From Eledone cirrhosa (taxonomy: Eukaryota): a stretch of 64,000 nucleotides of DNA. Under the pieces are notes generated by a model. It was not told the DNA's origin. It made no database searches and saw nothing but the letters and a program-made list of their open reading frames with translations. This document shows positions 43,341 through 45,427 of this stretch, one piece after another (positions within the stretch are counted from its first letter, which is position 1; every line of letters begins with the position of its first letter). Both the position numbers and the translations under genes were made by a program. The DNA lies in contig OZ024741.1 of assembly GCA_964016885.1 (NCBI GenBank), forward strand, positions 140,120,001-140,184,000. Reading direction: 5' to 3'.

Positions 43341-43767
43341 ATGAATGTATATATAGTGTATTTTGCAATACACTGTATGCTTAATTAAAAACATTTCGAA
43401 ACCTTGTTTTAGAGTAGTGACAGTCTCACTTACTTTAAATTTTCAGCAAACAAGGGAGATAAAGCTGACAGAGCTCTGTTTCGTACTGATTGGTACTTAT
43501 CAAAGCCAAGTACTCAACCTGTTTGCTGAAAATCATGAATGATTAATTCTTATAGAATTCTAGTAATAATCAGGAACTGATTATACAGAGCGGTTGCCGA
43601 TTGAAGCAGAAATTGAAAATTAGAATAAATGCTCTGAAATAGCGATATATATATATGAATGTATATATAGTGTATTTTGCTGAAAATTTAAAGTAAGTGA
43701 GACTGGCACTACTCTAAAACAATAGCGTAAGGTTTCTAAATGCTTTTAATTAAGCATACAGTGTATT
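43341..43767 (-). mobile_element. Retrozyme-like ~314-nt monomer (subfamily A) with restart and inverted segment; degenerate HHR at 43464-43506
   Basis: ATGAATGTATATATAGTGTATTTTGC recurs at 43341 and 43655. Minus-strand GCT-TTGATAA-GTAC-CAATCA-GTAC-GAAAC-AGAGCTCT-GTC-AGC. Confidence 0.75.
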
Positions 43768-43967
43768 NNNNNNNNNNNNNNNNNNNNNNNNNNNNNNNNN
43801 NNNNNNNNNNNNNNNNNNNNNNNNNNNNNNNNNNNNNNNNNNNNNNNNNNNNNNNNNNNNNNNNNNNNNNNNNNNNNNNNNNNNNNNNNNNNNNNNNNNN
43901 NNNNNNNNNNNNNNNNNNNNNNNNNNNNNNNNNNNNNNNNNNNNNNNNNNNNNNNNNNNNNNNNNNN
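43768..43967. other. Assembly gap (200 N)
   Basis: Run of n characters. Confidence 1.
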
Positions 43968-44769
43968 TATATATATAAATATTATATTAATATTTATATA
44001 TATATATATATATATATAGATATATATATATATATAATATATATATATATATAATATATATATATATATATATATAATATATATATATATATATATATAT
44101 AATATATATATATATATATATATATATATAATATATAATATATATATATATATAATATATATATATATATATATATATATATATATATATATATATATAT
44201 ATATATATATATATATATATTATATATATATATAATATATATATATATATATATATATATATTATATATATATATATATATATATATATATATATATATA
44301 TATATATATATATATATTATATATATATATATATATTATATATATATATATATATTATATATATATATATATTATAATTATATATATATATATATTATAT
44401 TTATATATATATATTATATATATATATATATATATATTATATATATATATATATATATATTATATATATATATATATATATATATTATATATATATATAT
44501 ATATATATATATATATATATATATATTATATATATATATATATATATTATATATATATATATATATATATTATATTATATATATATATATATATATATAT
44601 ATATATATATATATATATATATATATATTATATATATATATATATATATATTATATATATATATATATATTATATATATATATATATATATATTATATAT
44701 ATATATATATATATATTATATATATATATATATATATATATATATATTTATATATATATATATATATAT
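43968..44769. repeat. (TA)n microsatellite
   Basis: Direct reading. Confidence 0.95.
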
Positions 44770-45427
44770 GAATGAATGTATGCATACTATATTTGGCAAT
44801 ATACCGTATGTTTAAATTAAAAACATTTTGAAAACCTTACGCTATCATTTTAAAAGTAGTGACTATGTCACTTACTTCTTTTCGGCGATAGAAGGCAGAG
44901 AAGCTAACAGTCTGTTTCATGCTGTTTGGCAATCATCAGATCTACGTACTGATTTCTTCCGCCGAAAATTATAGAAGCTGGATTCTTATAGAATCTTTAA
45001 AAATGATAGCGTAAGGTCTTCAAAATGTTTTTAATTAAAAACATGCTGTATATTGCCAAATATACTATACATACATTGATGTATATATCGCTATTTCAGA
45101 GATCAATCCTAATACTTAATAGTTGCTGGACCGGCAATCACTCTGTATAATTAGCTCCTCATTATTACTGAAATTCTATAAGAATCGAGCTTCTATAATT
45201 TTTGGCGGAAGAGGCAGTACGTGGCTCTGATGATTGCCAAACAGTATGAAACAGACTGTTAGCTTCTCTGCGTTCTTTCGCCGAAAAGAAGTAAGTGACA
45301 TAGTCACTACTTTAAAAATGATAGCGTAAGGTCTTCTAAAGGATTTTAATTAAACATACGGTATCTTGCCAAATATACCATGCATACATTCATGTATACA
45401 TCGCTATTTCAGAGCACCAATCCTAAT
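44770..45427 (+). mobile_element. Retrozyme-like ~315-nt monomer (subfamily B): inverted arm 44770-44995 plus ~1.4 head-to-tail units
   Basis: TTTAAAAATGATAGCG at 44996 and 45311; TCGCTATTTCAGAG at 45088 and 45401; HHRs at 45214-45271 (+) and about 44895-44950 (-). Confidence 0.8.
45214..45271 (+). ncRNA. Extended type I hammerhead ribozyme
   Basis: GCAG-TAC-GTGGCT-CTGATGA-TTGC-CAAACA-GTAT-GAAAC-AGACT-GTT-AGC-TTCT-CTGC. Confidence 0.8.

Follow-up and report, generated by a model that had tools for sequence, protein, structure and literature searches.

Two head-to-head insertions of a hammerhead retrozyme in Eledone cirrhosa, likely spread by a Penelope-type enzyme copying a single-unit RNA

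Within the 64,000-nucleotide stretch of Eledone cirrhosa DNA analyzed here (hereafter the window), the segment at positions 43341..45427 consists of two head-to-head insertions of a non-LTR retrozyme, a family that was likely spread by a Penelope-type (PLE) enzyme copying a single-unit, probably circular RNA. The parts of this reading differ in strength. We are confident that the family is non-coding and mobilized by a PLE, and we consider it highly probable that the template is a single unit; that this unit is a covalent circle and that priming occurs from two strands are each probable to a lesser degree. What is observed is the genomic products alone, and the RNA steps would follow by analogy with known retrozymes, as these are described in PMC7229834, and with the PLE of the anole. 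The two window copies are ordinary, older members of the family, and the interest lies in the record kept by a young sister subfamily, which we call E.

Self-comparison of the window resolves 43341..45427 into two separate insertions in (TA)n, belonging to subfamilies A and B, on either side of a 200-N assembly gap (43768..43967) and an 800-nt (TA)n tract (43968..44769) that separates the 3′ ends of the two. Each insertion is built of two 5′-truncated arms arranged head to head, such that the 5′ ends meet and the 3′ ends point outward into TA tracts. The main arm of insertion A lies on the minus strand, runs from 43680 to 43331 (1.1 units) and stops at the short 3′ site within a (TA)n target tract (43282..43345); its inverted partner on the plus strand (43676..43767, 88% identical to the minus arm) is interrupted by the gap. 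Insertion B pairs a plus-strand arm of 1.38 units (44995..45428), which ends at the long 3′ site in a (CA)n/(TA)n target tract (45429..45524), with an inverted minus-strand arm of 0.73 unit that runs from 44994 to 44764, ends at the short site and is 90.5% identical to the plus arm. A conserved tail motif lies between the family's two 3′ end sites; it is present at 43630..43646 on the minus strand in A, and in the plus arm of B as a first copy at 45087..45103 and as a terminal copy, of the kind kept at long 3′ ends only, at 45400..45416. For these insertions, the search for ORFs of 90 aa in the window returned none besides frames in the TA tracts.

The original prediction read this segment as head-to-tail monomers of 314–315 nt inserted in (TA)n. 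The insertion into (TA)n is evident from the TA tracts that flank both copies, and direct repeats are indeed present: in B they span 44995–45114 and 45310–45428 (88% over 121 nt, period 315), and in A they amount to only 36 nt, partly TA (43331–43366 matching 43645–43680). Neither copy, however, forms a plain head-to-tail array, each being a head-to-head inverted pair, and neither contains two full units (1.1 and 1.4). The period itself fits subfamily B, in which it ranges from 309 to 319 and is mostly 314–315, but not subfamily A, where it is 320–322 in 11 of 12 spacings and the 314 of the window copy is an exception.

Three hammerhead folds are predicted in the window, one in A and two in B. 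The type I hammerhead of A (43444..43528, minus strand) has the core UUGAUAA (43503–43497, with U3-A8), a palindromic stem III and a GUC triplet, with the predicted cut between 43467 and 43466. That of the plus arm of B (45204..45282) has the core CUGAUGA (45227–45233), a U.U at the base of stem II, a short near-palindromic stem III and a GUU triplet, with the predicted cut between 45260 and 45261. The inverted arm of B carries another on the minus strand (44884..44963; core CUGAUGA at 44939–44933, GUU triplet). The first two had been described beforehand, and their helices, TAC bulge and 6-nt loop II are as described in both type I folds; the third had been overlooked, as had the placement of A on the minus strand. 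The stem I bulge and loop II are similar to those of the Schistosoma Sm-alpha hammerhead.

Across the family, stem I is open and the type I core YUGANRA / GAAA / NUH is present, with the pair at core positions 3 and 8 read as CG in 31, UA in 11 and UG in 1 of 43 rows. The triplet is GUC in A, GUU or GUC in B and GUA in E; among 27 B units, 14 have GUU, 10 have GUC and 3 have another. The TTGATAA core of A and the GUU of B had been taken as signs that the window copies are impaired, a view that does not hold: a pattern allowing either letter at both positions finds U3-A8 in 452 of 456 genomic A cores (by eye, all 36 A-type rows have U at position 3 and A at position 8), and GUU is a common B variant. 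Judged from these genomic copies, both are family traits, not damage. The C3-G8 pair of the hammerhead is a tertiary pair for which U3-A8 is a natural, active covariation, as reported in PMC3088659 and, for the Cercyon PLE of Schistosoma, in PMC4209133. Here the same covariation marks a whole retrozyme subfamily, A, whose sister subfamilies have C3-G8 and a unit collinear with its own.

The U.U at the base of stem II occurs in 17 of 27 B units and 4 of 6 E units, and is also found in axolotl HHR_Amex2 (PMC7229834). In A, B and E alike, stem III is a palindrome or close to one, a feature that is said to favor dimeric cleavage. Given the U.U and the weak stem III, the hammerheads of B and most of those of E may cut slowly, or only as dimers.

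The suggestion that pairing is kept between the diverged variants is upheld by compensatory changes in a 44-row alignment, in which 92.6% of cells of the named structure are paired (36–56% in slid controls) and 15 of 44 pairs have changes on both sides. The cells changed on both sides number 134, compared with 43 in shuffles and 4–40 in slid controls, a count that represents about five lineages rather than 43 independent events and comes from an alignment (A2) in which MAFFT misaligned stems I and III of E. The hammerhead domain is the part most diverged between subfamilies (43–65% identity, against 56–91% elsewhere; 62/95 for A–B, 41/95 for A–E and 51/92 for B–E), yet its pairing is retained, and the tail region is the most conserved (27–31 of 34). 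This combination points to selection on structure in the hammerhead and on sequence in the tail.

Rfam models detect no family hammerhead in the window at the gathering score, return only a weak HH9 match there at E≤5 (43448–43517, E 2.9), and find no hammerhead in one of the E arrays (L182) at E≤1. Matches to miRNA-precursor models were rejected, as they fall on TA tracts and inverted junctions. Since Rfam overlooks the hammerheads of this family, similar families are probably under-annotated.

The genome-wide search (3.0 Gb) returned other copies in the thousands. First-look candidates numbered 3740 for B and 2177 for A; 40 of each were scored and 30 of each retrieved, leaving 29 + 29 loci, the window's own copies included, after one duplicate was removed from each set. 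A 21-mer common to the subfamilies has 21,050 exact matches in the genome (control, 0). The third collinear subfamily, E, was found adjoining a coding PLE; it is very young, and its hammerhead pattern alone has 15,048 genomic matches, which we calculate to occupy about 4.7 Mb (0.16% of the genome). Units differ from their subfamily majority by a mean of 5.5% in B (27 units), 1.6% in A (11) and 0.8% in E (6), figures that derive from best-scoring copies and so understate age. With 15,048 near-identical E hammerheads, the family is still amplifying. Its units are low in GC (0.34–0.39) and fold as circles better than their shuffles do (z of −2.9 to −6.8 for 7 units). Other diverged variants or subfamilies of the 310–320-nt unit also occur (L236 upstream of position 1500, L137, L192 and L200), among them U3-A8 copies with another compensatory stem II.

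Judged by architecture, the family is a metazoan non-LTR retrozyme, in keeping with the proposed retrozyme-type family that is non-coding, has one hammerhead per unit and exists in many copies. It is dispersed at high copy number, is non-coding, and lacks LTR, PBS and PPT (the latter two judged by eye); its longest arms reach 13.6 units in E, 2.9 in B and 2.1 in A, such that, as expected of a retrozyme with units of about 170–400 nt, at least two complete units occur in tandem at some loci. In the A/B main arms and the 86 family loci searched, no ORF joining RT and GIY-YIG domains, as in an autonomous PLE, lies upstream of the 3′ repeat. The metazoan non-LTR retrozymes described from coral, Mytilus galloprovincialis and axolotl (Cervera and de la Pena 2020, PMC7229834; PMC7761336) likewise consist of non-coding tandem units of ~300 nt, and share with the family a GC content under 45%, a single canonical type I hammerhead in each unit, in which helix III is short and palindromic, a copy number in the thousands, the lack of LTR, PBS and PPT, and the presence of PLEs in the same genome. 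In contrast, the head-to-head clonal arrays, the paired short and long 3′ ends, the targeting of (TA)n and the tail motif receive no mention in the text consulted from these accounts; in the text of PMC7229834 the words "inverted" and "microsatellite" occur 0 times. Furthermore, circular RNA has been shown for the published retrozymes (PMC7229834), whereas the family is known here from genomic copies alone.

The evidence for PLE mobilization lies in how the copies begin and end. They are 5′-truncated at scattered points, and their 3′ end falls at one of two fixed sites, 26 nt apart, usually within a run of TA (under a strict 16-nt test, 39 of 58 main arms). All 58 A/B main arms continue 5′ into the previous unit (1.08–2.9 units). 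An inverted partner is present at the 5′ side in 33 of the 58 A/B loci, never tail to tail (0). Six of these pairs could not be classified by their ends; the other 27 comprise 25 that combine one short and one long end, two short-short and no long-long, a count in which only the partners of the B main arms are informative, as those arms were picked with a query whose end is the long site. The same combination of short and long was found at each of the 13 E loci that retain both ends intact, and in 11 of 11 pairs among 20 loci taken from the 21-mer list in order along contig C1.

These are marks of Penelope-type mobilization, as had been anticipated: (TA)n targets, 5′ truncation, an inverted partner and a tail at one end. 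An inverted 5′-truncated copy is reported from PLE insertions along with a tail confined to one end (PMC8557442; PMC3846280), a tail that Frangieh et al. traced in vitro to two adjacent internal start sites of the RT (PMC11167929); for the anole PLE, the same work describes both DNA strands as cut and extended, and predicts a dimer. More broadly, the insertions of EN+ PLEs in these three accounts (PMC3846280, PMC8557442, PMC11167929) are, like those of the family, 5′-truncated partial tandems with a head-to-head inverted arm, a one-end tail, AT-rich or microsatellite targets and a hammerhead upstream of the RT start sites. Unlike EN+ PLEs, the family has no ORF, and its arms are pure multimers of one 310–320-nt unit; its hammerhead is extended rather than minimal, and its tail measures 26 nt, compared with the usual 30–40. 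The two arms of a pair break at unrelated positions, with an overlap of 1–3 nt at 11 of 15 junctions, and in 3 of 13 E pairs the arm with the short end is the longer of the two, and so cannot always be a fold-back copy of the other. Together, these observations favor two priming events over the folding back of a single arm.

It is the E arrays, with arms of 0.2–13.6 units, that speak to the template. In 12 arrays with 95 full units, 26 variant columns are singletons (14 of these being two 7-nt slips) and 0 variants are carried by some but not all units of an array, a within-array identity that the assembly consensus has possibly inflated. Between loci the picture differs: the modal units of 15 E loci form 12 haplotypes, 0–18 substitutions apart, with periods of 310, 311 or 312, and each haplotype is uniform across both inverted arms. 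One 311-nt haplotype (L182 and L188) has an additional base just 3′ of the predicted cut in 22 of 22 units. Uniform arrays at each locus, with 12 haplotypes among them, indicate that every haplotype was at some point reduced to a single unit, which was then multiplied during insertion or shortly before it. In addition, the arms traverse the predicted ribozyme cut site, whose context is uniform within each locus, and show no accumulation of 5′ ends at it (0 of 15 on the plus and 0 of 7 on the minus strand), which excludes a cut linear unit copied once.

The likely sequence of events would begin with transcription of a tandem copy, from which adjacent hammerheads would excise one unit, to be closed into a circle by a host ligase. 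A PLE protein, probably a dimer, would then bind the conserved tail domain and nick both strands of a (TA)n tract; the long site would be used for reverse transcription primed by one nicked strand, and the short site, 26 nt upstream of it, for that primed by the other, with each polymerase circling the template for 0.5–14 turns. The two cDNAs would finally be joined at their truncated 5′ ends via 1–3 nt of microhomology, yielding arms that point outward, and solo arms would reflect events primed from one strand only. More tentatively, and with somewhat more doubt than confidence, we suggest that the young arrays preserve, as genomic fossils, the work of a dimeric Penelope-type enzyme that reverse-transcribed an RNA circle of viroid size by the rolling-circle route, with both strands of a single break priming at two fixed sites.

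An unlikely, though not negligible, alternative retains the same PLE insertion and makes the circle unnecessary: the template would be either a linear, uncut transcript that reads through a donor array or a linear unit, cut and copied with repeated template jumps, and the hammerhead would have some other role. This agrees with the behavior of the anole PLE in vitro, where hammerhead cleavage is dispensable for insertion and uncut RNA is the main template (PMC11167929); eight of nine Xenopus retrozyme dimers are likewise reported without cleavage in vitro (preprint 10.64898/2026.07.22.740005), and stems II and III are weak in B and E. Donor arrays of sufficient length exist (13.6 units), and some loci share a haplotype (L183 with L186; L185 with L147 and L148), as would also be expected of a linear read-through transcript from a uniform donor array. 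Nonetheless, a new mutation in one donor unit should then yield mosaic daughters, and 0 of the 12 arrays contain a partly shared variant; the lack of mosaics, together with 12 uniform haplotypes, means that arrays must be rebuilt from one unit. Template jumps, for their part, should leave ragged joints, in conflict with the uniform context of the cut site.

Copying of a single, probably circular unit also fares better than growth of the arrays in DNA, in which a lone PLE-derived terminal unit would insert and then expand by unequal crossover. This has been proposed for vertebrate retrozymes (10.64898/2026.07.22.740005), and an older B trimer (L003) that is mosaic by eye indicates that local exchange does occur later. 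As an account of the arrays we regard it as improbable: both inverted arms are multimeric, share one haplotype and are nearly mutation-free, with exact short and long ends and variable 5′ breakpoints, and the older A and B arms are shorter (at most 2.1 and 2.9 units, in samples selected by best score), the opposite of growth with age.

It is more doubtful still that the unit is a mere pseudo-LTR of some coding PLE, with the window copies as ordinary 5′-truncated ends. Every architectural mark of the family is a PLE mark, and the screen described below covered 84 PLE loci, about eight families, out of tens of thousands of candidates. But the arms run into further units, up to 13.6 of them, and never into an ORF, and the hammerhead of the family is an extended canonical one, compared with the minimal one (by eye) of the young PLE considered next. 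An assembly artefact at the gap, or homogenization of the arrays by consensus calling, is scarcely credible: although the partner arm of A stops at the 200-N gap and inverted repeats within TA tracts assemble poorly, N occurs in only 1 of 58 A/B loci (the window's own), the architecture recurs genome-wide, the arrays retain locus-private haplotypes and single-unit variants, and two public runs from one sample, possibly the source sample and so not independent, contain thousands of B-unit contigs, some with opposite-strand joints.

With regard to the enzyme, the partner is at present a candidate only. PLE1, of the Neptune/Nematis type, is a young coding PLE (33,112 candidates; median divergence of 1.4% over 32 ends) with open frames of up to 1261 aa, whose protein contains YVDD and a CxxxxCxxC zinc-finger-like linker before a C-terminal GIY-YIG domain. 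Pfam gave the PLE1 ORF no annotation, and a PLE1 search of representatives returned unnamed relatives only. Its 3′ ends lie in (TA)n and combine short and long at 8 of the 11 loci where both strands carry ends, and its terminal repeat contains a minimal hammerhead-like motif (by eye). Its tail is about 60 nt rather than 26, and by eye the only sequences it has in common with the retrozyme are ATTTCAGA and, at the short site, ATATCG, which is a weak lead. In the window, a PLE1 3′ end is found at 55249–55713 (minus strand), with full-length relatives at L091–L094. Arrays of E adjoin PLE1 at three loci (L149 1–1945, L189 2316–2501 and L092 5191–6087, one of them ascertained through PLE1), an adjacency that may be a mere reflection of the shared (TA)n target. 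The first of these, in which a PLE1 ORF abuts the E array, was considered as a possible chimera and set aside; the broken arm there stops 8 nt beyond the cut site, and deletion following nested insertion accounts for it equally well.

Searches for a closer connection covered several routes. Among 84 PLE-endonuclease loci, screened by blastn and with an nhmmer profile of the unit, none contained a coding PLE with a homologous terminal repeat; the unit matches in these loci were only separate insertions and weak matches to other hammerhead families. Downstream of 30 GIY-YIG matches, a search for the tail motif with mismatches allowed gave nothing real, and tblastn with seven PLE protein queries on 86 family loci found no same-strand coding remnant running into the 5′ end of an arm. 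A second PLE group (50,404 first-look candidates) is represented in the window by broken copies with RT and GIY-YIG fragments at 57772–59730 and 17335–18194 (minus strand); in 20 of its loci, no hammerhead was seen ahead of the first TA tract.

It is informative to place the family against what is already in print. The retrozyme class, the proposal of a PLE partner and that of multi-unit cDNA have all been published (PMC7229834; PMC7761336; 10.64898/2026.07.22.740005), and the review PMC7761336 portrays retrozyme repeats as having no motif that points to a partner. The vertebrate retrozymes of the bioRxiv preprint 10.64898/2026.07.22.740005, which samples vertebrates, three insects and a coral, belong to the same class and have the same proposed dependence on PLEs. 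As presented there, the case is argued from pLTR homology, with growth of the arrays at the DNA level; here, by contrast, the 84 PLE loci yielded no homologous pLTR, and the arrays look built at insertion. A giant squid genome paper merely counts 235 Rfam hammerhead matches in the text consulted (PMC6962438). In the full-text literature, as distinct from subscription papers, Repbase, Dfam and preprint supplements, we found no account of this family, of cephalopod retrozymes or of head-to-head clonal arrays with paired PLE ends.

How animal retrozymes are reinserted is the question to which the E arrays are most relevant: a PLE has been proposed to copy them by rolling circle, without a motif to link the two, and the 2026 preprint favors growth at the DNA level. 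Each E array is a readable record of one insertion event and is able to separate such models. If true, the rolling-circle reading would name the class of mobilizer of animal retrozymes, explain the purpose of their hammerhead, and account for the "inverted copy plus tail" of Penelope by one mechanism. For the assay already established with a lizard PLE, the family provides a defined RNA with a pair of predicted start sites, along with a young enzyme as a candidate.

Several unrelated families of hammerhead repeats seem to coexist in the genome. Just left of insertion A, the window contains a small head-to-head pair (43079–43284) of a hammerhead family, C, with 1548 first-look candidates, similar short and long ends, a tail of about 70 nt and an E-like stem II; longer copies have a pLTR-like upstream part, and no coding parent was present in 23 loci. 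Another canonical hammerhead family (core CUGAYGA, stem III CUAGUA) was seen in five places, including position 35660 of the window (minus strand), L077, L083 and L094. Elsewhere on the plus strand, the window contains a LINE reverse-transcriptase ORF at 47430–48971 (Pfam RVT_1), a second, broken LINE at 40727–42597 (by eye), and fragments of a PIF1-like helicase at 191–1373 that are, by eye, suggestive of a Helitron.
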